A stretch of 64,000 nt of DNA from Candidatus Thorarchaeota archaeon (GCA_048882485.1 JBHLRP010000007.1:24474-88473); one strand, 5' to 3'. Positions 3,685-21,339 are shown, counted from the stretch's first letter. Notes: generated from the sequence alone by a model not told the origin. A program made the numbers and translations.

Positions 3685-4851
3685 GTGGAAAATATGGAAG
3701 AAGAATTAGTCCCTGACACGTGTTTTGAAGGACATGAGTTCACGGTATGGTCTCTTGCTTTTACACCTGATGGCAGATACATAATCTCAGGCGGACAGGA
3801 TGCAACAATCAGGGTGTGGGACCTGCATTCAGGTAGTCAGGTCCACAAACTTAGCGGGCATCGTGGTGCCGTTTACGGACTGTCCGTTTTGGCAGATGGA
3901 ACTAGGGTGGTTTCTGTTGCTGATATGGACCTCGCAGTTCGAATTTGGGACATTGAAGCAGGAGAACCGATCAGCGCGCTAGCTCCGAATTCGGCACATG
4001 TCAATGCAGTCACTTCTTCTCCGGACAATCGGTATGTTGTAACTGGCGGAGATGATGGCAAGGCAAGAATCTGGGATATAGACAGTGGAGTTCTGCTTAG
4101 AGTCCTTGACCATGCGCGAAGCATATATTCAATGACAATTTCGCCGGACGGTCGGCATCTTGTCATCGGCTCAAAGACTACCGCAGGATCGATTGAGAAA
4201 GGACTCATCTGGGTATGGGACTTTGAGCTAGGAATGCTACTTCACACCCTTGAGAGCCATACAGGCCATGTCACATCCCTTGCAATGACTGCAGACTCAA
4301 GATACATTCTCTCAGGAGGACAGGACGGCACAGTCCGTCTATGGGATCTTGAAACTGGCACTCTCCTCTACACTATGGCTGGACACGAAGGGCCTGTGGT
4401 GATGGTCACTGTCACACCAGATGGCCAACACATCATCAGTGGTTCAAGCGATAATACTCTCCGTCTTTGGCAATTGCACGGAGGAGTGTTCATCCACTCA
4501 GTGGAACACACTGAGAACGTTCATGCGGTTGCAGTAAGCGCCAATGGCAGGCACATTGCAACAGGCGACGTTGAGGGCATAGTGCAGCTTTGGGACTTCC
4601 GAATCGGCACAAGCTGGGTTGATGACTCTATTGACAGGGAAGAAGCAAAGGAAACTGAACTTGCAGCATTCAGAGAAGTCCAGCTACGAAAAGTGATAAA
4701 CCGCTACGAGACCTTGCCGCTTGAGAGACTGAAGACCCTCCTGCGCTTCGAGGATATGGCTGAGCTCGAAGACTGGTTATTGGATTTGCCAGAGGAGGCG
4801 CCTGTCAAGATTGATGGAGATCTGTTGATAATTCGTAAGCAAGCAACTTAG
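3685..4851 (+). CDS. WD40 beta-propeller protein (7 repeats) with C-terminal PCI-like winged-helix domain
   Basis: Repeated GH...SGG.DGTVRLWD units; tail LRKVINRYETLPLERLKTLLRFEDMAELEDWLLDL...KIDGD. Confidence 0.9.
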   Translation: MENMEEELVPDTCFEGHEFTVWSLAFTPDGRYIISGGQDATIRVWDLHSGSQVHKLSGHRGAVYGLSVLADGTRVVSVADMDLAVRIWDIEAGEPISALAPNSAHVNAVTSSPDNRYVVTGGDDGKARIWDIDSGVLLRVLDHARSIYSMTISPDGRHLVIGSKTTAGSIEKGLIWVWDFELGMLLHTLESHTGHVTSLAMTADSRYILSGGQDGTVRLWDLETGTLLYTMAGHEGPVVMVTVTPDGQHIISGSSDNTLRLWQLHGGVFIHSVEHTENVHAVAVSANGRHIATGDVEGIVQLWDFRIGTSWVDDSIDREEAKETELAAFREVQLRKVINRYETLPLERLKTLLRFEDMAELEDWLLDLPEEAPVKIDGDLLIIRKQAT

Positions 4852-4945: not shown

Positions 4946-6673
4946 ATGAGAGGGAATAGGATGAAGTCTAAATCTATGCACTTGCTTCTTTTGACACTCT
5001 TACTTGGCTCTCTCCTTTTGCCGGCGGGAGTTTCAGCCGAATTTGATTCGCCTATTGTGATAGTTGAGAAGGTAGATTACCCCTCAGTAGATCGAACATG
5101 GGAGGATATATCCCTACTCTACGAGGATCAGTTTCATAGCGCCGCTGAGGTTGATGAGGAGATAGAACGTTTCCATTCTCTCGTTCCAGAGCTCGTTGAC
5201 TTGGAAGTGATTGGCGAGAGTTATCAAGGCTTAAACATCAGCGCTCTTCGCATCACAAATGAGCTAAGTACTGTTCAGAAAGCCAAGACACTAGTGGTAG
5301 CTCATCACCATGGTAGGGAGCAGATCACTATCGAGATGGCACTACGGTTTATCCTAAGACTCCTTAATCTCTATGGAGTAGACGACACATTTACTGACTA
5401 CATAGACAGTCAGGAGATCTACATCATACCCACAATAAACCCTGATACTCTAAGTCATGTTCTCAACGGAAACCATTGGTTGAGAAAGAACCTGCATCCC
5501 TTTGATGATGATGGTGATAGTGAAGCTGATGAGGACCCGTGGGATGATGCCAACGGGGATGGAATAATATCCGGCTATGATGTCTACACAAAAACAGGTC
5601 CTGGAGGATCGACTGAATATCAATACACATACTTCGAGGGTGATGACGATGATGGTGATGGATTATTCAATGAAGATCCAATTGGGTATGTGGACTTGAA
5701 TCGCAATTACGCCACTGGCTGGGGAAACGATGAAGATTCATCACCTGATCCTCTGTCTCAGGTCTTTCGTGGTCTCTCAGCTTTCTCTGAACCTGAAACG
5801 CAAGTCTTTCGAGATTTTGCCAGACAGCACAGTTTTACAATGGCATATTCTCTGCACTCAGGTATCAATTCAACCTACTTCCCGACTGATGACTATGGTA
5901 ACTGGGCGGAACCCAGTATTTACTACGAAATCGTGATGGATTTCAATAGTTTCATGGGCGAGGGCTTTAACGACGTCCCTGGCTATCCGGGTGTCGAAGA
6001 TAGTTCACCGCAGGTGGTTGAACGCCATGCATATGGCGGCTACTGGGATGATTGGATGTATGTAGAACGAAGGACAACCGCCCCTGTTACCTTCGAGCTT
6101 TATCACAATGCAACAGTAGATGGACCTGCACACCTTACAGTCTATGAGGACAATTCCACACACTACATAGAAGAATTTACTGGCATCTATGGTTACTTTG
6201 CTCCAGTTGAGTCTGCAATTGAGAGGACCTGGCAAGACATGATGCCAGGTTTTGATTACCTGCTTGAGAACACTCCAATACTTGCTGGAACCAATCCCAC
6301 AGCGTCAGGTGGTATTGGCGAAGGTGATTCAGTTACGGTGGGCTTGTCTGTGACTTGTCAGAGCATTCTGTTTGACGCCACAGACCCAATCTATGGTTTC
6401 TTAGAATATGGCGGTCCTGTTCCTTCAGGCCTCACAATCTCAACTGCAATACTAGATGCAGGGGAAACCAGGACAATCTCAACTTCCTTTGACCTGCCCA
6501 GAGATTTGGGGAGCTCATCAGTTCAACTCTATGTAGGAAACAACTTCACAGGATACGTGCACCTTCGACTCTCATTAGGCGAAGCACCACCCCTTGACTG
6601 GCTTTCGATTGTAGCAGTTGGTAGTGTAGCCATGGTGGCAGTAGTCATTGTGATTGTTTGGAGGAAGCTGTGA
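4946..6673 (+). CDS. Secreted, membrane-anchored M14 zinc carboxypeptidase
   Basis: Signal peptide; HHGRE zinc motif, NPD, WLRKN, DLNRNY, FSEPET, SLHSG; DxDxDG Ca-binding-like loops; C-terminal TM helix ending RKL. Confidence 0.9.
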   Translation: MRGNRMKSKSMHLLLLTLLLGSLLLPAGVSAEFDSPIVIVEKVDYPSVDRTWEDISLLYEDQFHSAAEVDEEIERFHSLVPELVDLEVIGESYQGLNISALRITNELSTVQKAKTLVVAHHHGREQITIEMALRFILRLLNLYGVDDTFTDYIDSQEIYIIPTINPDTLSHVLNGNHWLRKNLHPFDDDGDSEADEDPWDDANGDGIISGYDVYTKTGPGGSTEYQYTYFEGDDDDGDGLFNEDPIGYVDLNRNYATGWGNDEDSSPDPLSQVFRGLSAFSEPETQVFRDFARQHSFTMAYSLHSGINSTYFPTDDYGNWAEPSIYYEIVMDFNSFMGEGFNDVPGYPGVEDSSPQVVERHAYGGYWDDWMYVERRTTAPVTFELYHNATVDGPAHLTVYEDNSTHYIEEFTGIYGYFAPVESAIERTWQDMMPGFDYLLENTPILAGTNPTASGGIGEGDSVTVGLSVTCQSILFDATDPIYGFLEYGGPVPSGLTISTAILDAGETRTISTSFDLPRDLGSSSVQLYVGNNFTGYVHLRLSLGEAPPLDWLSIVAVGSVAMVAVVIVIVWRKL

Positions 6674-7045: not shown

Positions 7046-7060
7046 GTCCCTCGAAGGGAC
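7046..7060 (-). terminator. GC hairpin at the stop codon of the last SMC-operon gene
   Basis: Minus strand tagGTCCC-ttcga-GGGAC (first G shared with the stop), followed by atttcct. Confidence 0.4.
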
Positions 7061-7431
7061 TAATATCCCCATTCCTGTCCCAGTCTCTGTCTATACCAAC
7101 GTTGGCCTCGCTTTGTGAGCGAGTATTTACCTCCAATTTCCTGGAGGTGCCCCAATTCAATCATCCTTTCGATAACATTGAAGAGCTTGTCTTCCGATGC
7201 TCCTGTCGCTTTCTGAAGCATCAGAAAATCCATTTTGCCTTCTCTTTTCAAATGCTGGGCAATATCAAACTTACCAACTGCTTTAGTTTCTTTCCTTGAT
7301 ACTACCTCTCCACAATTGGTACAGAGCAGGTCACCTTTGAGGTCGTCTCTTGCTACCTCCTTGCTCCCACATATGGGACAGGTCGCCTTTGAGAATCTAA
7401 GGCTTCTTCTATGTGACATTGCTTTGACCAC
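7060..7431 (-). CDS. TFIIB-type Zn-ribbon plus winged-helix protein
   Basis: CPICGS...DDLKGDLLCTNCGEVV Zn ribbon, then HTH/wing LQKATGASEDKLFNVIERMIELGHLQEIGGKYSLTKRG. Confidence 0.8.
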   Translation of the reverse strand: MVKAMSHRRSLRFSKATCPICGSKEVARDDLKGDLLCTNCGEVVSRKETKAVGKFDIAQHLKREGKMDFLMLQKATGASEDKLFNVIERMIELGHLQEIGGKYSLTKRGQRWYRQRLGQEWGY

Positions 7432-7520
7432 GCCACTCTGGTTCGGCTTTCTTGATAAAACTAACGAAGTGACATTGAGTGCGGAACAGGCCCATGACCA
7501 TTATGTCACAAGAACCTCAG

Positions 7521-8027
7521 TCATGAGTCATCAGCGACAAGGCGTCTGAAGAATGCTTCATAGTCTATCTCAAATCCTACCCTAGTGCCTGGCCGCACAC
7601 GAGTACCTGTGTCGTCAAACTCGATGTAGCGTTGTGCAGCCAGTTCTTTCAGATCTAGTCTCACACCTCTTCTGGTCTTGCGTCTGAATTCCCGGACTCG
7701 ATTTATCGATACCCATCCGCCTTCCTGATAGGCGAGAGTGATGACTACTAGAAGAGTAGCTGCAAGTCGATCTGGAAGAACTGACTCTTCCAACAGTTGC
7801 TCGCTTCGTATTCTTGTATCAAGGTAAAAGACATGGTCGATTGGATTATGTCTAATCATAAGTCCGACTTCTGAAAGTCTTTTGTCAAGTGCGCCTAATC
7901 TTTGGAATAGAATATGCTTTCCTGTATCTTCGGGGAAACCAAGGGCACTGAGCATGTCCTCCACTCCCGCTCCGATAGGATTTCCTGAGCGGGTGAGAAG
8001 TCTCATTAGGATTATGTATTCGTTCAA
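7521..8027 (-). CDS. Kite-like tandem winged-helix subunit (Nse1/Nse3-MAGE/ScpB-like) of the SMC complex
   Basis: 168 aa with two wH-like halves (LDKRLSEVGLMI; TLLVVITLAYQEGGWVS...LKELAAQRYIE...RPGTRVGFEID); 4-bp overlap with the kleisin-like gene. Confidence 0.6.
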   Translation of the reverse strand: MNEYIILMRLLTRSGNPIGAGVEDMLSALGFPEDTGKHILFQRLGALDKRLSEVGLMIRHNPIDHVFYLDTRIRSEQLLEESVLPDRLAATLLVVITLAYQEGGWVSINRVREFRRKTRRGVRLDLKELAAQRYIEFDDTGTRVRPGTRVGFEIDYEAFFRRLVADDS

Positions 8028-8683
8028 GAGGCCGCCTCCCTTATGACTGTTCTATCATCGATATCGTACTGGAGAGTGCCCTTTGAAATTAGAATCACAA
8101 GATAGAGAAATCGTCGAAGGAACTCTTCAAAGTCCTCGTTGAGTATGATGTCATCGACAGGTATCTTCTCTCCCACCGGAATGCTCGCTCCAAACTCTTG
8201 TGCATCCTCCAGTAGAATTGCGTCCTCTGATGGGAACGCATATCCATTTGGCAACGGTGCAATGGTTGGGATTCTCTCTTCAGGCGGTTCCATTCCAAGT
8301 TTGTCAATAAACTGCCTAATACGGTTCGATGAACGATCCAGCGCCGAGTGATCTAAGTGCGATATTCCAACTGGATGGTGATATACTATCAGTCCAGCTA
8401 GCTCTCTCGCTGACATCGTCTTTAGTTTCGCCACATATAGCTCGGGAGACGCGAGGACTCGGGCAAGTTCCTGTACCTTGTTTACTTTGGCTCCTAATAC
8501 CTCGTTAAGCATCTCGTCTATGTCCAGCCTTGTTCCAACTTTGGCTGTAAGCTTTTGTAGCCTCTTATACTCAGGACTCAGTTTGATTTCAAGCGGGTTG
8601 ACCTTTCCTGAACGGACAGACTCTGCTATTCTGAGGATGTTCTCAGCAAAGGTCTTGATCTCGCTCACAGAAATACACCTCAT
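8024..8683 (-). CDS. Kleisin-like subunit (ScpA/Nse4-like)
   Basis: N-terminal VRSGKVNPLEIKL resembles the ScpA IDPWDIDI segment; C-terminal FLRRFLYLVILISKGTLQY resembles the kleisin C-terminal wH; 4-bp overlap with smc. Confidence 0.6.
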   Translation of the reverse strand: MRCISVSEIKTFAENILRIAESVRSGKVNPLEIKLSPEYKRLQKLTAKVGTRLDIDEMLNEVLGAKVNKVQELARVLASPELYVAKLKTMSARELAGLIVYHHPVGISHLDHSALDRSSNRIRQFIDKLGMEPPEERIPTIAPLPNGYAFPSEDAILLEDAQEFGASIPVGEKIPVDDIILNEDFEEFLRRFLYLVILISKGTLQYDIDDRTVIREAAS

Positions 8684-11600
8684 TGTCCCGAGAATCTAGG
8701 ACTCTCAACAATTACTGAGGGATCTGTTCCACCAGGAGAAACAACGCCGAGCCTCTTGTCAGCATGCTTCAGTAGGTGTGTGCTCTTCGCAGGTGTAAAG
8801 AGAATAAATTGGCTCCTGCGAGACGCATCATAAAGTAGTCTGCTCACTGACTCTGTATTGGTTGCATCTAGAAAGATATCTATTTCATCCAATGCATATG
8901 TTGGAGCTGGATTGAATCTCTGGAGGGCTAGAATCAGTGCTATCGCAATCAACGATCTCTCCCCTCCGGAGCCCTGACTTATCTCCCCAAACTCGTCACC
9001 CTTTATTCGGGACCTGAACTCCACACCATAAATACCCTCTCTGAGAGTCAGAGTGAATTTGGCTCGACCTGCGAACTCGGCCGTTGCTAGAATCTTGTTC
9101 ACATTCTTCTCCACTTTGGATAGAGTTGCATTCATACCATTGTGATACTGGTCTCGAATGTGCTTTACAGTAGCCTCAGCTTCGAAGAGTTCAACTTTCA
9201 ACGTGTCTACTTGAATTATCAGCTCGGAGAGTCGACCTCTTAGCCTGATTTCGGTATGAGCGACGGTCTCAGAAACATCCTCATAGTCATCAAGTAAATG
9301 CCGAACCCGCATCAATTCCTGCCTCGCTGTATCAAGTGACCTGACAACATCAGGTCTTATGCCCTTGTCAAGTTCTTGTTGAAGTCGCTTCTCCTCCTCT
9401 TCCATGTTGCGTAGCTGCTTCTGAGCCTGTAGAACAAGTAGTCGATTGTTCTTTATCATAAGATTCAGTTCTACTAGGCGTTCACCCACTGTCCGGAGAA
9501 TCTCGTTGATTCCACTCAATTCCTCCTTCAACTTGCTCTCTTTATCGCCAGACTCCAATAGACCCATCTCAAGGGTTTCAATCAATTCAGTTATTGAAGC
9601 TGCTTCGCTCTTGGAATTCTTTATCTCTTCTCTAAGTTCCCTGATTTGGTCTGAAAGCATTGTAATGTTCTCATTGTGTGCCTTCAAATCTGTCCGTCGA
9701 CGATCTTCATCTCGCTCCGTGGCGTGAAGGCCCCGCTCAACCTTTGAAAGGTCTCCCTGAAGTTTCCTCAACTTGAGTCGAATTGCTGACCTCTGCCCTG
9801 CAAGCCTGCTTCTCTCAGGTGGTTGTGAGCTGTCTAGCTTTCTCAGTTCTCTCTGAGCCTTTCCAATCTCCGCCTGCAATTCCTTTACTTCGTCATCAAG
9901 GCCTACAATCTTCTCCTGAACGACCGGTATGCTGTCTGATATCTTCTTCCTACGTTCCCATATGCTACTCCACCGCGTCATATACCCCTGCAGGTCGAGG
10001 ACCTTCTCTCTCTCATCTGTTGCTCTCTCGAGTTTCTCCATCACTTCCGTCATTTTCTTTCTTGCAACAATGAGTTCCCTCTCAATCTTCAGCAGACGAG
10101 TCTGAAGAGGTGCCGTTGACACCAATCCTGATGGTGCCTTCTTTGGATGACTTATGATGATCTTGGGAGTCACCTCTGCGACTGACCCATCACGTGATAC
10201 CGCCATGAAACCGTCTTTGCTTGCAACTCGTGATGCAACTCTGCCGGTACTTGTGAGGACAATATCGCCAAATGCCTCTCTCAGAAGCATCTTCTCATCA
10301 TCATCAAGAGAGAGAATATCCCATAACCAACCATCAATACCCTTACCAGAGGGAAGACTTGGCATTGATGACTTAGGTTCATCCCTGATTAGGATAATTG
10401 GTGATGGTGCGTCCGACTTGTCTCGCAGCCTCTGCATTAATGCATAGTCGGTTGGGTCACTGACAATGAAGGCAAAAGGAAGGTTGCCCGAAAACACTGC
10501 TTCTAAAGCATTAGAGTATTCATCACTCTCCAATAGAAGCTCCACCAGTGGTCCATTTACTGAAGTCAGATTATGCTCAGAAATCGCATCTTTCAGATCC
10601 CGCACGCCGCTAGGGATACGTTCTGATGACTCAGATAACATGACCTTGATCTCATCGGTCTCCTTCTGCAACTGAGAAATCAGACTTGAATTCTGGAATC
10701 TCCGTTCATTCAGTGTGGCTATCTCTCTCTCCAGCTGGCCCTTGCGTCGAGCAAGCTCCTTCTCATCCGTTTCCTCCAAAGCCTTCCATATGTGAGCCCA
10801 TTTGCTATCGATGCTCTGTAACTCCGCCTCTTCGTTTTGAAGCCGTTCTTGATGGCTCCTCAATAGTAGGTCCTTCTTCTCAATATCACTCTGAAGTGCC
10901 TTGTAAGCGATATACGCCTCAGTGCGAATCGTATTCCATTCTTCAAAGGCTGAGAGTTCCTGCTCGGTTCTTTCCAAATCAATTTCGATCGATTCAATCT
11001 CAGTGCTAATTTCTTTCCGATCCTGAAGATACTGCTCCTTATTTGCCACTGCCCTCTCGAGATCGTCCTTCGCCGCTGCCTTCTCTCGCTCTGTCTTCTT
11101 CAACTCCTTCTCAAGCTGATTAATCTCATTCACTGCGTCTTTTGACTCATCCTCTATCTTATGCATCCGCCTTCTTTCTTCATCTATACGTGCCTCAATC
11201 CCCCCAATCTCTCGTTGAAGTGATTCGAGGCGAGATTCTACTTCGAAGGCTGCCTTTTGATTCTCTTCTATTTGGTTTTCTAGTGATTTCTGCTCATCAA
11301 GGACATCTACTAGACCTGATTCTCTATTATTGATTTCATCTCTTAACTCGACCAGTCTGGCAACGATGTCATCAAGAGTTGCCCACTTCACCTCAATCTC
11401 TAGATCTTTCTCCTCATTCTTGAGTACGCGCTTCTTTTCCAATCTCTCAAGGTCATGTTTGAGTAGCTCAAGTTCTCTCTCAACAACCCTGGATTCATCA
11501 AGTGCCGTTTGCAGCTTTTGCTGGCTACGTGCCACATCTGTTTCTTGGACTGAAATACGATCTCGTACTTCGCTAAGACCTGTGCCTTCTTCAACCAGAC

Positions 11601-12048
11601 GACGGACCTCAATGGGATTCATCTCACGAAGTGCATTGATCCGTTCTTGAGGCATGAACACGAGGGTGTTGTCAATATCAAGGCCAAGTGAGCTGACAAG
11701 GAATCTCAATTCTGCAGCTTTCACCCGTTTTCCGTCTATGTATGCTTTAGGGATTCCATCACGATCAATACGGCGGAGAAAAGAGTGACTGATTCCTCCA
11801 TTATTCACATTCACCTCAACTTCGGCTGAATTGGCTCCATGCCTCACGAAATCGCTCCACTTGGAGTAGCGTTCCTCTCGTTGGTTTGATCCAAGTGCAA
11901 ACTTGATTGCGTGAAATACTGAGGTCTTTCCAGAGCCATTTGGTCCTATGATGACTGTAAGTCCAGGATCAAAGCTAACAACTCCCTCGTAGAAAGAGAG
12001 GAAGTTCTTGAGCCTGACTGAACCAATGTGGACCTTGGCCTTGCTCAC
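8680..12048 (-). CDS. smc: SMC ATPase of the Smc5/6 type
   Basis: Walker A GPNGSGKTS, Q-loop DNTLVFMPQERI, two long coiled coils around a hinge (NGPLVELL...ALEAVF..NLPFAFIVSD..D), signature QGSGGERS, Walker B ALDEIDIFLD, SQFILFTP. Likely start GTG 12048 after GGAGG; the ORF track extends to 12093. Confidence 0.93.
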   Translation of the reverse strand: MSKAKVHIGSVRLKNFLSFYEGVVSFDPGLTVIIGPNGSGKTSVFHAIKFALGSNQREERYSKWSDFVRHGANSAEVEVNVNNGGISHSFLRRIDRDGIPKAYIDGKRVKAAELRFLVSSLGLDIDNTLVFMPQERINALREMNPIEVRRLVEEGTGLSEVRDRISVQETDVARSQQKLQTALDESRVVERELELLKHDLERLEKKRVLKNEEKDLEIEVKWATLDDIVARLVELRDEINNRESGLVDVLDEQKSLENQIEENQKAAFEVESRLESLQREIGGIEARIDEERRRMHKIEDESKDAVNEINQLEKELKKTEREKAAAKDDLERAVANKEQYLQDRKEISTEIESIEIDLERTEQELSAFEEWNTIRTEAYIAYKALQSDIEKKDLLLRSHQERLQNEEAELQSIDSKWAHIWKALEETDEKELARRKGQLEREIATLNERRFQNSSLISQLQKETDEIKVMLSESSERIPSGVRDLKDAISEHNLTSVNGPLVELLLESDEYSNALEAVFSGNLPFAFIVSDPTDYALMQRLRDKSDAPSPIILIRDEPKSSMPSLPSGKGIDGWLWDILSLDDDEKMLLREAFGDIVLTSTGRVASRVASKDGFMAVSRDGSVAEVTPKIIISHPKKAPSGLVSTAPLQTRLLKIERELIVARKKMTEVMEKLERATDEREKVLDLQGYMTRWSSIWERRKKISDSIPVVQEKIVGLDDEVKELQAEIGKAQRELRKLDSSQPPERSRLAGQRSAIRLKLRKLQGDLSKVERGLHATERDEDRRRTDLKAHNENITMLSDQIRELREEIKNSKSEAASITELIETLEMGLLESGDKESKLKEELSGINEILRTVGERLVELNLMIKNNRLLVLQAQKQLRNMEEEEKRLQQELDKGIRPDVVRSLDTARQELMRVRHLLDDYEDVSETVAHTEIRLRGRLSELIIQVDTLKVELFEAEATVKHIRDQYHNGMNATLSKVEKNVNKILATAEFAGRAKFTLTLREGIYGVEFRSRIKGDEFGEISQGSGGERSLIAIALILALQRFNPAPTYALDEIDIFLDATNTESVSRLLYDASRRSQFILFTPAKSTHLLKHADKRLGVVSPGGTDPSVIVESPRFSGQ

Positions 12049-12061
12049 GCTTTGGTTCCTC

Positions 12062-13126
12062 CTACCTTCCCATGATTCTCCGTAGTCTGTCATTGTTCTT
12101 CTTTGCCCTCAGCAATCGAGTCAATCGATCTTCTGGAGTTCCCTTCATCAAGAATGGATACTCACTAAGGTATTCAAGGTCCTTTGAAGACAAAGGAAGA
12201 CTTGAGTTCAATGCCTCTATCACTCTCTGAGTTTCAGCATAATTATCACCGACAGCTAATAGGTAGAGTTGGTCCAGAAAATCATCAGGATACTCAGGTT
12301 CGACAGTATCTAAGCTGGGCACTTGTCTTCCCTGAATTCGAGTCAGTAAGTTGTCGAACGCCCTTTTTCTTCCCACTGGGAGAACTCCGCTTTCTTCGAT
12401 CATCCGTTCTAGCTTCTCTCTTGGAACTTCCTCCTGGACCTCCTGCAAAACCAGTTTCACAGCGAGATGCTTAGCTTCGCTGAAACTCCAACCTTCGCTG
12501 AGTTCTGCAGCATCTGTGGGACTTAGGTCTTCTCTCCCCTTGAACGCCGCTTCAAACAAACGTACTCGGTCATCAAGAGTGGCCTTTTCCGAAACGTACG
12601 CATGGTCAAAGAGAGACAGAAGCTCGGCATCCATTTCTTGTGGAGATGAAGTGGAAGCTACCAGAAGCACTTCATCTGTGTCCCAACTAACACGTTCAGA
12701 CTCGATTCCCAGCAGAGCTGATTCCCTTGTATGGGCTGGGGCAATATATTCAGCTCGATCAATGTATAGTATAGAGGGGGCATTCCTTTTCGCAAACTCG
12801 AACCAGAAACTAATCGATTCTCGCACTCTGTCAGGCCGTCCAAGGATTCTTTCCAGCCTAGGACGTACAATGTTGATTGGAATCTCTCGTGACAAGTAGT
12901 GCACAAATGCTTCGAAATCTGTGCCTATATTTCCTATCAATAACACCTTTCCGCCAAAAGCTAATCCTTTCTTTCTCAAGTCGTCGCTCAGGTTGCCAAT
13001 ATGTGTAATTGACTCATGAAAGGTTCTAGCCATCTCTCTAATGGAATATTGGCCTAGGCGGTCTTTTTCTAGATCCTCGGGCCTACTCAGGATGACCGTA
13101 TCTGCATAGATGTTGTCTTCTCCCAC
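12062..13126 (-). CDS. Degenerate, probably inactive AAA+ ATPase (Cdc48/PAN-like classical clade)
   Basis: KVLLIGNIGTDFE at the Walker A position; FEFAKRNAPSILYIDRAE at Walker B; VLLVASTSSPQEMDAELLSLFD (SRH without Arg finger); lid AELSEGWSFSEAKHL. Confidence 0.75.
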   Translation of the reverse strand: MGEDNIYADTVILSRPEDLEKDRLGQYSIREMARTFHESITHIGNLSDDLRKKGLAFGGKVLLIGNIGTDFEAFVHYLSREIPINIVRPRLERILGRPDRVRESISFWFEFAKRNAPSILYIDRAEYIAPAHTRESALLGIESERVSWDTDEVLLVASTSSPQEMDAELLSLFDHAYVSEKATLDDRVRLFEAAFKGREDLSPTDAAELSEGWSFSEAKHLAVKLVLQEVQEEVPREKLERMIEESGVLPVGRKRAFDNLLTRIQGRQVPSLDTVEPEYPDDFLDQLYLLAVGDNYAETQRVIEALNSSLPLSSKDLEYLSEYPFLMKGTPEDRLTRLLRAKKNNDRLRRIMGR

Positions 13127-13266
13127 AGTATTACCTCTCCGGCAGGCTTGCGAAACCTGACAACTTTTGCAAATAATGTCTTCGCAGTCAACAAGAATCC
13201 GCGCCGTCCCATCACGTTAATGCGCAAGGATTAAGTCACGTATTGCGTCATCCATCATGATTCTTC

Positions 13267-14979
13267 ATGAGCAGTCCGTCAGACATTCTCCGCGACAAGG
13301 TTTGGAACGCAATAACGACTGTTGAGAGTAGAGGTCTTTTCGTTCATTCAACTGATCTGACTATTCGCTTCAAGGAACGAGCAAGAACGAGTGACAAGGT
13401 AGCTACTCGACGCTTGCCTCAGATTGTAGGTGCTTGTGTTCTAAACACATTGGTACCTCGTTCTGCAATGCTCTTGGTAGGAGGACATGGTGGAGGCAAA
13501 ACCACACTAGTGAAGCTTCTTGGACGGATGATGACCGGGAAGAGTCTTGATGAGATTGATGATGGCATGCTTCGAGGACATCCACAGCTCACAGAAGAGA
13601 AGATGGTGGCTACTCTCCGTCCTGGCCCATTGATGAAGGATGGAGTGGAGGTTGTGGTGTGGAGGAACTTTGTCACAGGATTCTGGAAGATGATTGATGA
13701 AGTTAATCGTCTTACACCTCACGCTCAAAACATCCTACTTTCAATGCTCGCTGAAGGTGAGCTGAAATACTATGATGAGGTCAAAAAGTGCGAAGAGTAC
13801 TGTTTATTTGCCACGCTAAATCCATCAGACGCTGGAACATTCGAACTAGCGCCTCCTTTTTTGGATCGGTTCGGAATAGCTGTTCCGATTACAATGCCCT
13901 CCATCAATGACCTTGAACTCATTCTCACAACCCGGGATGAGCGGCTATTTGGCTATGATGAGCTCTGGCAAGTTCCAGCAATTCTCAGTGAAGAGGATCT
14001 TCTTACTATATGGAATCTAGCCGACAAGATACCTGTTTCCTCCAGAGCGTCGGAGTACATGCGTTCATTGGTCAGGGAGTTTGGCGCTTGCATTCGAACG
14101 GACAAGAGTCAGACACACGAGTTGACTGTTGAAACTGGACTCTGTGATGGCTGTCATTTCAACACTGCAAAGAGTGTCTGCAACAAGGTTGTAATTCCAC
14201 TTAGTGTGAGAGCCGCCAAAGATCTAAACCGGTATGCAAAGGCTGCAGCCTGGTTGGTTGGATCTGGGGAAGTTGGCGTAGAGATAGTGAAGTCGCTTGC
14301 CCCACTTGTTTTTTGGCATAGAACCCGTTTCACTGGCGATGAAATGGAGCGAGCTCCGTTCTATGGTGACAGGTTTGCATTCGTGGAACATCTCGTGGAG
14401 CTGGCATCAACTAGGTTCGCACAGCGGGAGGCTGCAATCGAGCTCATGGAGAAACTACGAACCGGTAGTGCTGGCAAAGATGCGCTTGATGAGCTAAAGG
14501 AAATGGGGAAGAGTGATCTCCTCGTCAAGATTGACTATATCGACTTTGCTAAGGAACTCAAAAAGAAACGCTATGTGAAAATGGTTCAAAGTATAGAGAA
14601 GGGAGTTAAAGACAAGGATGTGACCAAGCTTACTGAAGTTCACGCTGAGCTTATGAAGGACACTGATTTTCCCAATAGAAGCGTCCTACTGAATAGAGTG
14701 TCAGAAGCTCTACACAGACTAACACTCTCTCAGTTCAACATCACCTTCGAGCAATGGCAAGAACTTTGGACAGTCATAAGTCTTCGATACCCTCCCATGA
14801 CAAGTATCTTGAAGGAAACTCTCACACCTCCAAGGCGGAAAGTAGTGCGAACTAATGGGTTGACCCTCGTCATCTATGTTACTGGTGATAAGCCCGAATC
14901 ATCAGTCTTTCTTGAGATATCTGGAGGGACTGATGCGTTAGAATTGAAGAAAGAGATTGATTCGAGTCTTACAGAGTAG
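13267..14979 (+). CDS. MoxR-family AAA+ ATPase with Cys-rich insert
   Basis: GGHGGGKTT, MIDEVNR..PHAQNILL, FATLNP, ELAPPFLDRF, SVRAA; Cys cluster C...CDGC...C. Confidence 0.9.
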   Translation: MSSPSDILRDKVWNAITTVESRGLFVHSTDLTIRFKERARTSDKVATRRLPQIVGACVLNTLVPRSAMLLVGGHGGGKTTLVKLLGRMMTGKSLDEIDDGMLRGHPQLTEEKMVATLRPGPLMKDGVEVVVWRNFVTGFWKMIDEVNRLTPHAQNILLSMLAEGELKYYDEVKKCEEYCLFATLNPSDAGTFELAPPFLDRFGIAVPITMPSINDLELILTTRDERLFGYDELWQVPAILSEEDLLTIWNLADKIPVSSRASEYMRSLVREFGACIRTDKSQTHELTVETGLCDGCHFNTAKSVCNKVVIPLSVRAAKDLNRYAKAAAWLVGSGEVGVEIVKSLAPLVFWHRTRFTGDEMERAPFYGDRFAFVEHLVELASTRFAQREAAIELMEKLRTGSAGKDALDELKEMGKSDLLVKIDYIDFAKELKKKRYVKMVQSIEKGVKDKDVTKLTEVHAELMKDTDFPNRSVLLNRVSEALHRLTLSQFNITFEQWQELWTVISLRYPPMTSILKETLTPPRRKVVRTNGLTLVIYVTGDKPESSVFLEISGGTDALELKKEIDSSLTE

Positions 14980-14993
14980 GAGATTGCCGCTAG

Positions 14994-16712
14994 TTGACAG
15001 AAGCTCGGGAGCTAGGCAGAAGCGATCTATTGAGTGAGGTTGCACGCCGTGCATGGGAGCGTGCGCTCGCTGACTTTTATCATCCCCCTTTGCCTGATGT
15101 ACATGTAGAGCATAATGCAGATGCAAGCAGCTACTTCTATATTGATTCTGATGACTGGACAGTCCATCTGAACACAGCCGGAGTTCCTCCCAATCTTGAT
15201 ATGAACGAGGCTGAGCCCTACTTCAGATCAGTCTGTCACCATGAGATTCAGCATTACCTGGTCTGCCCTTATGATGCTGTGATGAATGGAATGATGTTTG
15301 CAGCTGCCAGATGTCATGTATCTGATGCAACTGCCTTGTTTGTGTGTAACCTGTTTGCCGATCTAGTTGTGGATTCAGCCTTGCTTAAGAGATATACACG
15401 TCTCACACATTCGCGTATCACATCCAATATCTTTGGCTCTTCCATGATGGGCCAAGCTCATAGTCCATTGTGGCTCTTGATAGTGTCCTGCTACAGAGCG
15501 ATGTGGGGCTTTCCACTTCCTTCAACAGTCACTATAGACAAGGAGACCTATGAGGCTGCTGAGTCGATAGCATGGATTAGCCGAAAATATATCGACACTG
15601 AGAAGAGGTGGCCCAAGGCAGTTGAGGAGATCGCTAAGATTGTGGCTCATTGGCAGCCTGATCGCGATGAGCCTCTTGCAGGCTATGGGGCAACTGCTGA
15701 GCCTGGCGAAGGAGGAGCCACAGGAACCGTATTCGTCCCACTTGATGTGGATTCGGTGATGGGCAACCCGACTGAGATACGAAATGGCGACCGCGCAAAG
15801 CGATGTATGAAAGATGCTGATGACGAGAATCTCGAGAAGGAAATGGAGCGGCTAGCAGTTGAGGTTGAACAAAGAGGTGGGGACCTTAGAGACCTCGAAG
15901 CTGTCTATCTGGTCGCTGGGATTGGTTCGAAGAGGAAAGAGTGGATTCGCTTCTGGTATAGGGCGAAGGTTCGTGGTCTCTTAAGATTTGATGTACGAGA
16001 GCGAAAAGCAGCAGGCTCCACACCGCTATCTACTCAGGTCTGGCGGCTAGGGGACCCAATTGAGGAGCTTGATGTTGTGCAGAGCCTACAGGCATTCCCT
16101 ATCCTAGTTCCCAATCTCTCTACTAGACGTTGGCTTAGGAAAGAGATGTACGGAGAGTATGAATCCGACACTCTTCCTGATCTACTGCTTGTGATTGACT
16201 CAAGTGGTTCAATGACTTGGTCAATGCGTGGGAAGACTGTGTCTGGGCCATACCACACGGCATTGGTTTCTGCGTTTGCAGCCATGGACGTTGCTCTTCG
16301 AAAAGGGAGCCGTGTGGCAGCTATCAACTTCTCGGATGGTGCTCGAATATGCAACTGGACTAGAGAACGTTCAGTTGTGGAAAAGGTGCTATTGGCTTAC
16401 CAAGGTGGAGGCACAGTTGCTCCAATAGAGAAGATCTCTGAATCTTGCGATGCTGCAGGCCCTCCGGTCATGGTCCTTATGATTACTGATGCCGAGATTG
16501 CCAACTGGAATCGGCTCATCAAGTCGATGGCAAAGCTCACTCGTCGCGGTCACAAGTATTTCATGTTCCACATCGAATCACCTGGATACGAGATTGATGA
16601 CCAAGCGCTTGTCGCGATGGCCAAGGCCGGGGTCTCCGCTATCCCCGTTGAGTCAGTGACGGATTTACCTGGATTGGTTGTGAGAGAGGTGAGAGGTGTC
16701 TACAATTCGTGA
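14994..16712 (+). CDS. vWA-domain protein with N-terminal HExxH metallopeptidase-like domain
   Basis: HHEIQH followed by NLFADLVVD; MIDAS DSSGSM, GGGT, ITDAE; 14 bp downstream of the MoxR gene. Confidence 0.85.
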   Translation: MTEARELGRSDLLSEVARRAWERALADFYHPPLPDVHVEHNADASSYFYIDSDDWTVHLNTAGVPPNLDMNEAEPYFRSVCHHEIQHYLVCPYDAVMNGMMFAAARCHVSDATALFVCNLFADLVVDSALLKRYTRLTHSRITSNIFGSSMMGQAHSPLWLLIVSCYRAMWGFPLPSTVTIDKETYEAAESIAWISRKYIDTEKRWPKAVEEIAKIVAHWQPDRDEPLAGYGATAEPGEGGATGTVFVPLDVDSVMGNPTEIRNGDRAKRCMKDADDENLEKEMERLAVEVEQRGGDLRDLEAVYLVAGIGSKRKEWIRFWYRAKVRGLLRFDVRERKAAGSTPLSTQVWRLGDPIEELDVVQSLQAFPILVPNLSTRRWLRKEMYGEYESDTLPDLLLVIDSSGSMTWSMRGKTVSGPYHTALVSAFAAMDVALRKGSRVAAINFSDGARICNWTRERSVVEKVLLAYQGGGTVAPIEKISESCDAAGPPVMVLMITDAEIANWNRLIKSMAKLTRRGHKYFMFHIESPGYEIDDQALVAMAKAGVSAIPVESVTDLPGLVVREVRGVYNS

Positions 16713-16718
16713 TGAATT

Positions 16719-18164
16719 CTAATCAGGAGCATCATCAGACGCTGTCGGTTGTGGAATACCCATCAAATATGCATGCATCGATCTTGCGGCTATTCTTCCT
16801 GCACCCATTGCCTCGATCACTGTAGCTGAACCAGTGACAATGTCACCGCCTGCCCAGACCTGTGGCAGGTTTGTGCGATTGTTCTCATTCACAACAATAT
16901 AGCCCCATTTGTTGAGTTCTAAGTCCGGCATTGTCTTTGTCAACAATGGATTTGCGCCTGCTCCGATTGAGATGATTACTTGATCGCATTCAATCTCGAA
17001 GTTTGATCCCTCGATCGGAATTGGTCGCTTTCTTCCGCTAGCGTCGGGTTCCCCAAGCTCCATCCTGATACATTCCATTCCTACAACTTCTCCATCTTTC
17101 CCAAGAATCTTCACAGGATTGGTCAACAACTTGAAGATGATGCCTTCCTCCTCCGCATGATGGACCTCTTCTCCTCTAGCAGGTAGTTGCTCACGCGCAC
17201 GTCTGTACACTATGGTGGTCTTTGCGCCCAGTCGCTTGGCAGTTCGTGCGGAATCCATCGCCACATTTCCGCCGCCTACAACGCAGACATGCTCACCAGG
17301 AGGTAATGGCGAGTCGTAGTCCGGGAATAGATACCCCTTCATTAGGTTACTGCGAGTCAGATACTCATTAGCTGAGTAGACTCCGTTCAACTCCTCGCCC
17401 TCAATTCGCATGAACCATGGAAGTCCTGCTCCTACACCGATGTATATTGCGTCATACTCCTCCATTAGTTCCTCCATCGTGACGGTCATGCCGGCAACTA
17501 CATTCAGCTCGAAGTTCACTCCCTGCCGCGCAAGGTAGTCGACCTCTGCTGCCACAATTTCCTTGGGGAGTCTGAACTCCGGGATCCCATAGACCAATAC
17601 GCCGCCCGCCTCATGGAGTGCTTCAAAGACAGTGATTTCATGCCCTTCAAGAACGAGGTCTCCTGCGACTGTCAAGCCTGATGGTCCAGAGCCAATCACT
17701 GCGACCTTCTTACCTGTTGACTTCGCCTTTGACGGAATTTCAACCAAATTGTTGTTCCGCTCGTAATCTGCGACAAAGCGTTCCAAAGCGCCAATGGACA
17801 CTCCTCCATACCTCTTGAACAGCGTGCAGTCTCCTTCACACTGATTCTCCTGCGGACAAACACGGCCAGTGACTGCTGGAAGCACATTCGTTTCTTTGAT
17901 GAGCTTGGCAGCGTCTCCAAACTTCCCTTCGCCCACTAGCTTGATGAATTCAGGGATTTGCACTCCCACAGGGCATCCATGAACGCAGGGCTGCTTCCTG
18001 CAGTCAAGACATCTCTTTGCTTCCTCCATGGCCTGTTCAGGAGTGAGTCCCAATGGAACTTCTTCGAAGTTCGCAGCACGTGCGGAAGAATCCTGTTCTG
18101 GCATCTTCGCCCTTGGAATGGCCATTCTCTCCTTTGGAGTGAGGCCATCCTTTCGCTTGCTCAT
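16719..18164 (-). CDS. nfnB: NfnB/SudA (GltD-like) large subunit of NADH-dependent ferredoxin:NADP+ oxidoreductase
   Basis: RCLDC...CVHGCP, GRVCPQENQCEGDC, GSGPSG, YGIPEFRL, GGGNVAMD, YRR, AGGDIVTG. Confidence 0.92.
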   Translation of the reverse strand: MSKRKDGLTPKERMAIPRAKMPEQDSSARAANFEEVPLGLTPEQAMEEAKRCLDCRKQPCVHGCPVGVQIPEFIKLVGEGKFGDAAKLIKETNVLPAVTGRVCPQENQCEGDCTLFKRYGGVSIGALERFVADYERNNNLVEIPSKAKSTGKKVAVIGSGPSGLTVAGDLVLEGHEITVFEALHEAGGVLVYGIPEFRLPKEIVAAEVDYLARQGVNFELNVVAGMTVTMEELMEEYDAIYIGVGAGLPWFMRIEGEELNGVYSANEYLTRSNLMKGYLFPDYDSPLPPGEHVCVVGGGNVAMDSARTAKRLGAKTTIVYRRAREQLPARGEEVHHAEEEGIIFKLLTNPVKILGKDGEVVGMECIRMELGEPDASGRKRPIPIEGSNFEIECDQVIISIGAGANPLLTKTMPDLELNKWGYIVVNENNRTNLPQVWAGGDIVTGSATVIEAMGAGRIAARSMHAYLMGIPQPTASDDAPD

Positions 18165-19033
18165 TGGGACACCTCCTTCTTTTGCTTCTCTAGAGGCGCC
18201 ACGTTCGCCGTACAGCTGTAGAATTGAAACGCCATGTTCTCCTCAGCAACATATGCTCTCTTTCTGGCAAAGACTAAGTCCCAATTTACTTGATGTCCGT
18301 CGAAGTCAGGGCCATCAACACAAGCAAACTTGGTCGACCCACCAACCTCAACACGGCATACTCCACACATTCCAGTTCCATCAATCATCAGTGTGTTCAA
18401 AGCCACCACGGTTGGGATATCGTGCGGCTGAGTACCTTGGCTTGAGACCATCATCATATACGTACAGCCGACAAAATGTGCATGGTCTATCTTGCCCTCC
18501 TTCTCCAGGATATGTGGTAGAGCCTCCTTGGCATGCCCTTTGATGCCCCGTGACCCATCTCCAGTGACTAGGTATAGCTCATCAAGTACTTCTCGTAGGT
18601 TCTCCTCATTATAGATAATATATGAGGTTCTAGCTTCAAGCATTCCCACTACGCGGTTTCCTGCTTCCTTGAACGCCTTGGCTAATGGGTAGATAGCGCC
18701 AATTCCATAGCAGCCACCTCCTAGGAGGACAGTCCCATGGTTCTCAATTTTGGTTGGTCTCCCTAATGGGCCTACAAGAGTGTGCACAACCTGGCCCGGG
18801 CTCATTTTGCCCAGCTTCATTGTGGTCACGCCTGCTTCGAGATAGTATATTGTTATAGTGCCAGCTTCTGAATCCCAGTCTGACAGGGTGAGAGGCACTC
18901 TCTCTCCAACCTCGTCTGGAATAAGCATAATGAATTGACCTGCCTTGGCACGACGAGCTATGATGGGCGCTTTAAGCACTAATCGTCGTGTATTCGGAAC
19001 GACTTCGGTGTTCTCAAGAATCTGTCCTTTCAC
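18161..19033 (-). CDS. nfnA: NfnA/SudB (PyrK-like) small subunit
   Basis: AKAGQFIML...ERVPLT, GPLG, GGGCYG, MIDGTGMCGVCRV...CVDGPDF. Confidence 0.92.
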   Translation of the reverse strand: MKGQILENTEVVPNTRRLVLKAPIIARRAKAGQFIMLIPDEVGERVPLTLSDWDSEAGTITIYYLEAGVTTMKLGKMSPGQVVHTLVGPLGRPTKIENHGTVLLGGGCYGIGAIYPLAKAFKEAGNRVVGMLEARTSYIIYNEENLREVLDELYLVTGDGSRGIKGHAKEALPHILEKEGKIDHAHFVGCTYMMMVSSQGTQPHDIPTVVALNTLMIDGTGMCGVCRVEVGGSTKFACVDGPDFDGHQVNWDLVFARKRAYVAEENMAFQFYSCTANVAPLEKQKKEVSQ

Positions 19034-21339
19034 CTCGCCACCTCCTGTTTCTGAGAAGCTTGTTTCTCCTCCATGCGTTTCAATAGATCATCAAGTGAGT
19101 CTGTGGAGATGGCTGCATCACGATATGGCAATGCCTTGACGAATGTGCCAAGGTCTGTGACTCTGTCCGGCAACGATGCTCCTCGATATCTCGGATACCA
19201 CTCATTCTTCTCCTTGGTCGCGGGTTTCCAAGATGCTCTCTGAGCCTGTCCACCCACCTCGATATTCCGGCTGAGATGCTGCAGTTCCTCCCATATCTCC
19301 TCGGCATTGGTAAATGAGAATCCATCAATTCCCAATTTCTTAGCAATGTCAGCAAAGATACGCCAGTCCTCTTTTGCAATACCCGGAGGTTTGGCTGCTT
19401 GTTTCAACTTAAAGGGCCTCATTTCAAGATTCACGAATGTGCCATCTTCTTCAACGAAGGCTGCTGATGGAAGGATAATCGAAGCTCTCTCAATCCATTC
19501 AGAAGGATATGGTGATTGATAGATTATAATTGGGACCTTCTCGAAACCTTTCATAGAGATTGAGCCGTCTGCAACATAGAGAACATCGAGCTGGCCTTTC
19601 TTAGCCTTCTCACGCATCTCTGTTAGATGTAAGCCATCGGAGAACTCGCCCTTCCCCCATGCCTTCTTGACTACCGCGGCGGCTTTCTTCACTGTCACAG
19701 ATGAAGGCCCTGGAAGCATATCAGGGCGCAATCCTGCTCTAATAGCCCCTGCCTCGTTGCCCAATGGGAACATAGGCAGAATAATCCCGTCATCGCCGGC
19801 AATCCTTACTAGGGACCTGAGAGCAAGCCTTGGCTCAGGCGACTCAAGGATTCTGGGTCCAATAATAATTGCACCTCTTCCAGACTTGGTGACTTCTAAT
19901 AGTCTCTTTGCCTGACCACCTTTTACGCCTGCGAGCTTCTCCTTTTTGTCTGCTAAATCACTGAGAAGTTTGTGAAGCTTCTTCGGTGAAACTGGGGCGT
20001 ATTCTGTAGCCCATCTACGTAGGTTCATTCCAACCTCATCTAACACAATAAGAGGTGTGCCTTCTTTCACAAACTTGTAGGTCAATTTTGCTACAACTTG
20101 GTGCGTCTTAACGAAGTCGCCTCCGACAGATATTATCCAGTCCGCCTCTTCGAGAGCATCAAGAGATTGGATTCGGTGGAAATCCTGGTCCCTGGCCAGT
20201 TCCTTGTGAATCAGAGCTGGGAAGTCAGATCCCTGAAAATCTACATTGGGGCTTTTGATGCCTGCTCTAGCCAACTTGTTGAATAGGTAAGCTGACTCTG
20301 TGCTCATGTTTGGACTGCCGAGAAGGCCCGCTCGATTGGGGTCAGCATCGCCAAAAATCCCTGCGACTTCGGCAACAGCGTCATCCCACGATACAGGAAT
20401 TAGTTCGTCTCCTCTTCTCACATGAGGTGCCTTTAGCCTGTCAGGAGCATTCACCATAGAGGGAATGCAGAATCTTCCAAGAACGCACATGTGACCGTAG
20501 TTGGGAGCGCTCTTCCTGTCGCCTGGTCCCGTTCCCATAATTCGGTCCCATTTCACATCAAGTCGTGTCTGACAGCCAACTCCGCACAATACGCAGGTGG
20601 ATTCCTCTTCAGAATCAGCCACGCCCATCCATTTGGTCATTCTTGGCATCAATGCCCCTGTTGGGCAGACATCGATACACGCCCCACAGAACCAGCATCC
20701 ACTATCGATGTGTGAGGTTCCGAATGCTGTGTCAACACGCGTTTCATGTCCTCTCTGAGAGAACGTTATAGCACCCGTTCCACGCACTTCATCACATACA
20801 CGAACGCATCTTGCGCATAGAATGCACAGATTGTAGTCTCGATCAAAGAATGGGTCTTCTCTCTCGATTGGCTCGCTCTTGTAATAGGGTTGGTAATCCA
20901 AATCCCTTATCTCCAAGAACTCGACAACCTCTCTCAATTCACAAATATCACGATTAGGACATGTATTGCATCCTGTCACTGCCCCTGCTCTGTGTGACTC
21001 GGTTCTATATTTCAAGCAGTCTGGCCACTCAAAGCAGACGAGGCATGCACTGGGATGTTCTCTGAGGATGAGCTGCAGGATATTGCGCTTCATCTTTAGC
21101 AAGTCATCGGTCTCAGTCTTGATGACCATTCCTTCCTTCGGCGATGTAGTACAGGCGGCTTGATACCCTCTCCATCCCTCAACTTCAATCAGACATAATC
21201 GACAACCGCCATAGGCTTCGAGTTCTTCATGGTCACAAAGGGTTGGAATCTGAATGCCAGCGGACCTAGCAACATCGAGCACTGATTGAGCGTCCTTGGC
21301 AAACTCCACTTTCTTGTCGTTAATGAACATTGTAGGCAT
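19030..21339 (-). CDS. NuoG/Fdh-alpha-like Fe-S subunit without a Mo/W ligand or H-cluster
   Basis: Start ATG 21339 (MPTMFINDKK), overlapping the upstream stop; IPTLC...GGCRLC...AAC, HPSACLVC, CILCARCVRVC, CWFCGACIDVCP, CVLCGVGC; the ligand position reads NVDFQGSD with no Cys/Sec. Confidence 0.85.
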   Translation of the reverse strand: MPTMFINDKKVEFAKDAQSVLDVARSAGIQIPTLCDHEELEAYGGCRLCLIEVEGWRGYQAACTTSPKEGMVIKTETDDLLKMKRNILQLILREHPSACLVCFEWPDCLKYRTESHRAGAVTGCNTCPNRDICELREVVEFLEIRDLDYQPYYKSEPIEREDPFFDRDYNLCILCARCVRVCDEVRGTGAITFSQRGHETRVDTAFGTSHIDSGCWFCGACIDVCPTGALMPRMTKWMGVADSEEESTCVLCGVGCQTRLDVKWDRIMGTGPGDRKSAPNYGHMCVLGRFCIPSMVNAPDRLKAPHVRRGDELIPVSWDDAVAEVAGIFGDADPNRAGLLGSPNMSTESAYLFNKLARAGIKSPNVDFQGSDFPALIHKELARDQDFHRIQSLDALEEADWIISVGGDFVKTHQVVAKLTYKFVKEGTPLIVLDEVGMNLRRWATEYAPVSPKKLHKLLSDLADKKEKLAGVKGGQAKRLLEVTKSGRGAIIIGPRILESPEPRLALRSLVRIAGDDGIILPMFPLGNEAGAIRAGLRPDMLPGPSSVTVKKAAAVVKKAWGKGEFSDGLHLTEMREKAKKGQLDVLYVADGSISMKGFEKVPIIIYQSPYPSEWIERASIILPSAAFVEEDGTFVNLEMRPFKLKQAAKPPGIAKEDWRIFADIAKKLGIDGFSFTNAEEIWEELQHLSRNIEVGGQAQRASWKPATKEKNEWYPRYRGASLPDRVTDLGTFVKALPYRDAAISTDSLDDLLKRMEEKQASQKQEVAR

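Follow-up and report, generated by a model that had tools for sequence, protein, structure and literature searches.

Operons related to SMC5/6 are known from TACK and Asgard archaea, and the accessible parts of two studies describe them with three subunits (van Hooff et al., 10.1101/2024.01.07.573240; Yoshinaga & Inagaki, 10.1101/2021.05.15.444277 / PMC8665677). Here we analyse such an operon in a stretch of 64,000 nucleotides (the window) from Candidatus Thorarchaeota archaeon (GCA_048882485.1 JBHLRP010000007.1:24474-88473), with coordinates counted from its first letter. Its SMC, kleisin and kite genes are headed by a gene for a catalytically degenerate AAA protein (pseudo-AAA), and a divergent gene pair encodes a MoxR-clade AAA+ ATPase and a protein with a zincin motif and a vWA domain.

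MoxR-vWA pairs have been described apart from SMC. In the portions available, the bacterial MoxR-vWA ternary systems (Kaur et al., PMC7159879) and the metallopeptidase-vWA/MoxR pair of group 2.2 jumbo phages (PMC7824862) are not linked to SMC, and MoxR and vWA are absent from those van Hooff supplements that were examined. The first-pass annotation of the locus took the whole set for an undescribed system. Its core turns out to be published already; for the accessories we found no paper on a pseudo-AAA or a MoxR-vWA pair at an SMC, in a search that left most subscription journals uncovered. What appears to be new here is the pseudo-AAA and the linked MoxR-vWA, and what is known is the SMC-kleisin-kite core.

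Our reading is a six-gene chromosome-maintenance unit of Asgard archaea, made of the ring, the pseudo-AAA as a fourth component and an optional MoxR-vWA service module, to which we give a probability of roughly 0.5. The wider survey behind it covers 220 Asgard genomes, 251 Thermoproteota genomes and 77 non-Asgard SMC5/6-related loci.

The SMC-kleisin-kite core

All seven open reading frames (ORFs) proposed for the locus lie on the strands first assigned to them, and the junctions hold as well. The AAA gene stops at 12062, 13 bp from the SMC GTG start at 12048; SMC and kleisin overlap by 4 bp (ATGA, 8680-8683), as do kleisin and kite (TTGA, 8024-8027); the kite stop is 89 bp from the Zn-ribbon start, and the divergent gap (13127-13266) measures 140 bp. 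The domain calls also stand, namely SMC_N with SMC_hinge, AAA, the AAA_5/AAA_3/lid of MoxR, VWA, and a TFIIB Zn ribbon with a weak winged-helix match. The kleisin and the kite are without Pfam match, yet confirmed by ScpA profile comparison and fold search, respectively. The gene arrangement is not chance because the block is conserved across the family.

The SMC gene (8680..12048, minus strand) encodes 1122 aa with matches to SMC_N (E 1e-40) and SMC_hinge (E 2e-6), the hinge being at ~511-623 as numbered on the long ORF. Its head is complete, with Walker A, Q-loop, signature, Walker B and D-loop intact, and these motifs are kept in 33 orthologues. The Q-loop and switch strand resemble those of Smc5/Smc6, the switch being TP instead of TH or SL. 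A mechanical ORF start at 12093 was rejected as an over-extension in favor of GTG 12048, whose preceding GGAGG box overlaps the pseudo-AAA stop.

The head-domain tree is unrooted, contains two eukaryotic rows and leaves out a Rad50 outgroup and five rows (Baldr, two Loki, two f20). In it, a 100/99 clade unites canonical with bacterial SMCs, and a separate 100/99 clade holds the window SMC and its Thor, Jord and Loki orthologues, on the same side of the canonical split as eukaryotic Smc5/Smc6. A constraint that unites the window SMC with canonical Asgard SMC is rejected (p-AU 4e-94). An exclusive clade of the window SMC and the two eukaryotic rows finds neither support nor rejection (p-AU 0.058) in this unrooted tree, where the SMCs of Freyarchaeia, Hadarchaea and family f17 are nearer to the eukaryotic rows than the window's clade is. 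The full-length SMC profile did not favor Smc5/6 among PDB entries, with scores dominated by the coiled coil so that they give no classification.

The kleisin (8024..8683, minus strand; 219 aa with a C-terminal winged helix) is called by its position between SMC and kite and by its HHalign match to Asgard ScpA (probability 82%, E 1e-5, 138 columns). Its profile also matches the middle gene in some TACK operons. The kite (7521..8027, minus strand; 168 aa) has an AF2 model of tandem winged helices with a pLDDT of 83, whose full-length Foldseek matches are ScpB, MAGE-G1, Nse1, MukE and JetB, and which VIA aligns with Nse1 at Z 10.3 and rmsd 9.5 over 150 residues. As to its archetype, there is no PF04079 match, the Foldseek top is ScpB and VIA ties Nse1 and ScpB; a match to an Atlas MAGE cluster at 0.78 serves as a lead only. 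Sequence searches of PDB with the kite, kleisin and vWA profiles gave nothing decisive.

The head motifs, tree, kleisin profile match and kite fold together bear out the SMC5/6-type call of the first-pass annotation, and the core is the published SMC5/6-related second operon of Asgard and TACK archaea. A canonical Smc-ScpA-ScpB operon is on another contig (C25) of the same genome. By homology, the SMC homodimer, kleisin and kite are predicted to make a second, SMC5/6-related ring beside canonical Smc-ScpAB. Each genome has a single SMC of this kind and a single 168-aa kite; no kite gene at all was found in one Thorarchaeota genome (G011), which is 88% complete.

A degenerate AAA gene at the head of the operon

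The pseudo-AAA gene (12062..13126, minus strand; 354 aa) matches Pfam AAA but has lost Walker A, which reads GNIGTDF, and Walker B. The canonical Walker A is missing also in 71 of the 72 full-length relatives. The model has a p97/VAT/FtsH/PAN-like domain, then a flexible linker and a helical C-terminal domain. Whole-model fold searches cover residues 2-259 only, and identify them as a classical-clade AAA with the classical lid (Foldseek E~1e-9; VIA Z 18.7, rmsd 3.5, 227 aligned). The conserved C-terminal domain of ~85 residues (~270-354; 12062-12319) defines a small family (104 clusters at 50% identity). The nucleotide-binding subdomain has eroded further in Jordarchaeales and Baldrarchaeia, where the lid and C-terminal domain persist.

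The pseudo-AAA is single copy and occurs among the Asgard genomes in 43 of 51 Thorarchaeota, their sister family, 3/4 Jordarchaeales, 1/1 Baldrarchaeia and two Loki families (44/48 and 4/4 genomes). A same-strand SMC is directly downstream of it in all 52 Asgard loci, 24 of which were chosen via the AAA gene and not via the SMC. Wherever measurable, the first conserved SMC motif lies within 190 bp of the AAA stop. Hence, the proposed synteny of this gene with the SMC extends well beyond the family.

Active forms of the protein appear to exist. A Helarchaeales member keeps Walker A, and in Freyarchaeia/Jordarchaeia an AAA with intact Walker A and the same C-terminal domain precedes a shorter SMC from a different clade of the SMC5/6 side. 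Even when built without Freyarchaeia, the C-terminal profile retrieves the intact Freyarchaeia AAA, at E~1e-4 with 7,460 ORFs as background. A 100/99 branch parts all SMC-adjacent AAAs from the Cdc48/PAN/Vps4-type proteins, with long branches. The C-terminal domain was found in none of the Thermoproteota genomes, a co-oriented upstream AAA in none of the 77 TACK, Hadarchaea and other non-Asgard loci, and a confirmed relative in no viral contig scanned.

We therefore consider the pseudo-AAA quite likely a dedicated fourth component and a ring-bound adaptor, its binding being suggested by gene context. It appears to be an Asgard-specific addition that was a motor at first and became an adaptor later. 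The active (Hel/Freya) and dead (Thor/Loki/Jord/Baldr) forms would make a natural series from motor to adaptor. Published work, in its accessible parts, urges experiments on the archaeal SMC5/6-related complex and names three subunits. Should the complex require a fourth, Asgard-specific one, three-gene reconstitutions may fail or mislead.

Two candidates were discarded. The Caldarchaeum AAA beside an SMC lies on the opposite strand and has no match to the pseudo-AAA profiles, and what looked like pseudo-AAA-SMC fusions, in open frames of 1589 and 1563 aa, proved to be distinct ORFs with stops. The pseudo-AAA of one Jordarchaeales genome is split in two frames (L068:8954-9792), by decay or assembly error. 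In family f16 (L098, L099), the gene ahead of a canonical-clade SMC codes for an AAA whose Walker A is intact and in which the shared C-terminal domain was not detected, and the gene after this SMC is a kite with a match to the window kite profile. ScpB matches are 0/4 in this family, whose operon is possibly a hybrid.

The MoxR-vWA pair and the Zn-ribbon gene

The MoxR gene (13267..14979, plus strand; 570 aa) has the AAA_5/AAA_3/lid architecture with Walker A and B intact, a C-terminal extension and an invariant metal-binding insert (C275-C293-C296-H297-C305). After 14 bp follows the zincin-motif/vWA gene (14994..16712, plus strand; 572 aa). At the motif level, its protein has HExxH at 83-87 (H83/E84/H87) and the invariant N119/D123 as the candidate third ligand, and its MIDAS is complete (D402, S404, S406, T474, D499). 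By their motifs, both partners look catalytically intact. The 49 vWA orthologues, about 555-650 aa long, show no effector fusions.

The pair joins the operon in three gene orders. It is divergent in 43 of the 44 Thorarchaeota having both genes, co-oriented and upstream in Jordarchaeales and Baldrarchaeia (MoxR-vWA-AAA-SMC-kleisin-kite), and co-oriented and downstream in two further assemblies (AAA-SMC-kleisin-kite-MoxR-vWA). Two fully co-oriented operons have junctions that overlap or span 1-17 bp. On one Helarchaeales contig, vWA is directly upstream of AAA. The MoxRs of the differently ordered loci make one family in the tree. Family-level synteny is weak evidence for this pair because redox genes are also conserved beside the block, and the rearrangement is the stronger evidence; other neighbor genes do not persist outside Thorarchaeia.

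A second line of evidence comes from loss. Four genomes of one Thorarchaeota genus miss exactly the six genes, with both flanks intact and the GltD gene abutting the Zn-ribbon gene, and a fifth genome keeps all. The pseudo-AAA, SMC, kite, MoxR and vWA were searched elsewhere in the four genomes and not found. Moreover, 43/43 vWA orthologues in lineages that have this SMC clade keep HExxH, and 6/6 in the two families in which no member of the clade was found have lost it.

A narrower explanation ends the unit at pseudo-AAA, SMC, kleisin and kite, and makes MoxR-vWA a general chaperone/peptidase that stays there by ancestral neighborhood or shared regulation and does not act on the ring. It is possible, and we think it rather doubtful. 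It draws on Lokiarchaeia, where MoxR is unlinked to the operon in 40/40 genomes having both (480 kb apart in the closed genome), and where neither MoxR nor vWA was found in four genomes of 93-100% completeness that have the operon. Stand-alone relatives speak for it too. Shorter MoxR/zincin-vWA relatives are in 28 of the 251 Thermoproteota genomes and stand alone in 12/12 loci read, and in two other Asgard families MoxR-vWA and the SMC5/6-like operon lie apart. The six-gene loss was probably one event, and a contiguous deletion can take out unrelated genes.

The same observations weigh against the six-gene unit, as do a few more. In 6 Freyarchaeia-type genomes with the AAA-SMC operon, a MoxR orthologue was looked for and not found. 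The 77 non-Asgard loci are without either accessory, therefore the ring can work without them. The HExxH loss, too, was probably a single event, and every link of an accessory to the ring comes from gene context. However, the narrower explanation does not account easily for an adjacency that survives the three gene orders with their tight co-oriented junctions, for deletion ends that coincide with the six genes, or for the pair adjoining a different SMC in two Loki families. In 7 genomes of the latter, MoxR-vWA is tail-to-tail with a third SMC and a weak ScpB.

The MoxR-vWA synteny asserted at first is thus upheld well beyond the family, while the pair is optional, since Lokiarchaeia, Freyarchaeia and TACK either lack it or have it unlinked. 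We lean slightly towards MoxR-vWA as an older, optional module, a remodeller that would service the ring or its adaptor.

Some loci of the pair differ in other ways. The third Loki SMC (L090:2677-6893, L092, L094, L116-L118, L120) belongs to the canonical clade and measures ~1195-1206 aa. A weak ScpB-like gene accompanies it, no ScpA lies between the two, and the canonical operon is elsewhere; an assignment of the neighbor to the canonical operon was rejected. The Thermoproteota relatives form a three-gene unit (L253-L264) that encodes a protein of ~105 aa, a 406-aa MoxR that shares the Cys insert and has a non-canonical Walker A, and a zincin-vWA protein, with no SMC5/6-type gene within about 9 kb. 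In the Thorarchaeota sister family (L055:15396-18890), an opposite-strand 1164-aa gene splits MoxR from vWA and a 145-aa gene sits in the divergent gap. A second, unrelated AAA_5/vWA-like pair with two unknown genes is co-oriented upstream of a pseudo-AAA at L241:3657-7947. Two Loki genomes (G210:C7, G123:C2) have MoxR matches with internal stops, from decay or assembly error.

The divergent region (13127..13266) was aligned among 13 Thorarchaeia. Conserved back-to-back archaeal BRE/TATA-like boxes (minus 13172-13184, plus 13223-13235) flank an invariant GCGC at 13201-13204, and the composite motif is unique in the genome. This fits two putative promoters with possible shared control. A sigma-70/terminator scan gave no excess over shuffles, and a short motif common to the two upstream regions was dismissed as frequent genome-wide.

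The Zn-ribbon gene (7060..7431, minus strand) encodes a TFIIB-type Zn ribbon plus winged helix of 119-123 aa, whose conserved start is probably ATG 7419. A seven-gene machine with this protein as subunit or dedicated regulator had been proposed, and the gene, which is highly conserved, does come after the kite in almost all Thorarchaeia. But it was found in two Thorarchaeia-order families only (48/51 and 1/1), all four genomes with the six-gene deletion still have it, and in some genomes an MFS gene sits between it and the kite. It is a bystander because it was found in Thorarchaeia only and survives the deletion. The module is six genes, not seven, and the larger machine, largely refuted already, is very improbable. 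The protein is perhaps a transcription factor. This apparently Thorarchaeia-specific fusion could be an undescribed transcription activator.

Function and comparison with known systems

Rings of such families load on DNA, and translocate or extrude loops; this ring would do so probably in replication or repair. The pseudo-AAA would be a formerly active Cdc48/PAN-type motor, with the P-loop still present in Helarchaeales and Freyarchaeia, that decayed to a non-catalytic adaptor acting via its lid and conserved C-terminal helical domain. The MoxR hexamer and the zincin-vWA adaptor may be an older chaperone/peptidase pair that was recruited. MoxR-vWA families are known for peptide capture and pulling. 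Here, the vWA MIDAS could capture a client peptide on the ring, be it the kleisin linker, the kite or the pseudo-AAA, the MoxR could pull it using ATP, and the zincin domain could bind or clip it, so that the ring is released or turned over. The loading, unloading or proteolytic control of the ring by AAA+/vWA proteins that the first-pass annotation put forward is likewise hypothetical.

A bolder and, we think, unlikely proposal is a dedicated Asgard ring-release machine, in which the pseudo-AAA, as a stoichiometric subunit, and the MoxR unfoldase with its zinc-peptidase adaptor would cut or open the kleisin. Such a machine would be a functional counterpart, in prokaryotes, of separase/Wapl/p97 control and older than eukaryotes. 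If true, an ATP-driven remodeller/peptidase on an SMC ring would be a dedicated regulator of a new sort in prokaryotes; we know of no earlier one. The locus bears on the origin of SMC5/6 and on the regulation of prokaryotic SMC rings without hawks, Nse2 or Nse5/6. As a closed Loki-type genome carries the pseudo-AAA operon too, cultured Lokiarchaeia or co-expressed genes should allow a test of the idea.

Restriction of extrachromosomal DNA is a known function of eukaryotic Smc5/6 and of Wadjet, and a role against mobile genetic elements had been offered for the present locus. The ring would then sense small DNA circles of plasmids or viruses, with MoxR/zincin-vWA as a threshold switch or effector. 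The block is dispensable, as the six-gene deletion tells, and MoxR-vWA with an inactive NTPase as the third component is described as conflict systems in the available part of PMC7159879. Nevertheless, nothing in the loci supports this role and we hold it for improbable. No JetD, other nuclease or variable effector is in any locus read, PADLOC gives no specific match, the neighbors are metabolic, and the genes are single copy and near-universal in Thor and Loki, with roughly lineage-following trees and MoxRs 47-97% identical.

Hence, the locus looks like housekeeping or chromosome maintenance rather than defence, because it is single copy, near-universal and conserved in inheritance with no nuclease or effector. 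Maintenance is favored also by the DNA-metabolism genes that adjoin related operons: Hadarchaea have an Lhr-type helicase there, many TACK loci have a ~950-aa gene from that same cluster, and two Asgard families have a primase and a helicase.

The flanks of the window block are metabolic. On the left are a pyrophosphatase, a WD40 beta-propeller protein (3685-4851) and a membrane-anchored M14 zinc carboxypeptidase (4946-6673), the last in close relatives only. On the right, the minus-strand redox cluster (16719-23632) has a GltD/PyrK-type (NfnAB-like) pair, NuoG-like and NuoF-like genes and a small gene, in an arrangement that varies among Thorarchaeota. An opposite-strand MFS transporter gene is inserted at differing operon points in several Thorarchaeota (L037:6795-8243, L038:1793-3223, L040:525-1904, L045:6498-7844).

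RavA-ViaA serves respiratory complexes, and in a similar manner MoxR-vWA might mature the adjacent Fe-S/flavin oxidoreductases, with the SMC operon incidental. The GltD/PyrK-type pair abuts vWA in most Thorarchaeota loci read, NuoG/F-like genes follow in the window, and insertion or repair of metal clusters by MoxR-vWA pairs is given in the accessible part of PMC7159879. But the redox cluster remains where MoxR-vWA is deleted, and the Jordarchaeales, Baldrarchaeia, Loki and TACK loci read do not have it next to the pair. This role is hence most unlikely, and the six-gene maintenance unit stays preferred.

Related SMC loci vary in their surroundings. Families f17 and f20 (L111-L115) have an SMC5/6-side SMC and two small kleisin-/kite-sized genes, then a primase large subunit and a ThiF/E1-like gene; in f17, a Hel308-like helicase is divergent to the SMC operon. 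Their vWA orthologue is without HExxH, and an unknown gene of 440-480 aa precedes MoxR in most of these loci. About half of the TACK/Hadarchaea loci (L134-L213) adjoin the ~950-aa gene, an Lhr-type helicase where annotated.

Among known SMC systems, Wadjet (JetABCD/MksBEFG) shares an SMC-kleisin-kite core in one operon. It differs by its JetD/MksG nuclease, absent from the window block and the orthologous loci read, and by its MukB-type SMC, which the window SMC is not; the window locus is stable and chromosomal. Eukaryotic Smc5/6-Nse1-4 shares the Q-loop and switch-strand motifs, the kleisin plus kite and the side of the canonical split. However, the window has a single SMC gene for a homodimer and one kite without RING, with no Nse2/5/6 seen, so the eukaryotic heterodimer and two kites are not matched.

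As to the accessories, the pseudo-AAA shares the fold of residues ~2-259 with the classical-clade AAAs (Cdc48/p97/VAT, PAN, FtsH, Vps4; PF00004), and is set apart by the lost Walker A/B, the single AAA domain, the unique C-terminal domain and the fixed SMC coupling. The adjacency of MoxR and MIDAS-vWA genes is common to RavA-ViaA, midasin and CoxD-CoxE, and the N-terminal zincin motif fused to vWA to the jumbo-phage pair, as far as the available text of PMC7824862 describes it. The Cys-rich insert and C-terminal extension of the window MoxR and the SMC operon linkage are different.

The ternary conflict systems, in the accessible part of PMC7159879, likewise bring MoxR, vWA and an inactive NTPase into one neighborhood. 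Their third part is STAND, VMAP, FtsH or beta-propeller, whereas here it is a classical-clade pseudo-AAA without peptidase domain. The window module, unlike those described there, is without variable effectors and has a single-copy, conserved inheritance.

The closest are the archaeal SMC5/6-related operons, with the same SMC-kleisin-kite order, the second copy beside canonical Smc-ScpAB, the Smc5/6-like head motifs and an Asgard host. The non-Asgard SMCs are mostly much shorter in their arms (580-710 aa in TACK and ~980 aa in Hadarchaea against 1122 in the window). Neither accessory occurs in those 77 loci, whereas in the window a pseudo-AAA heads the operon and MoxR-vWA is linked to it.

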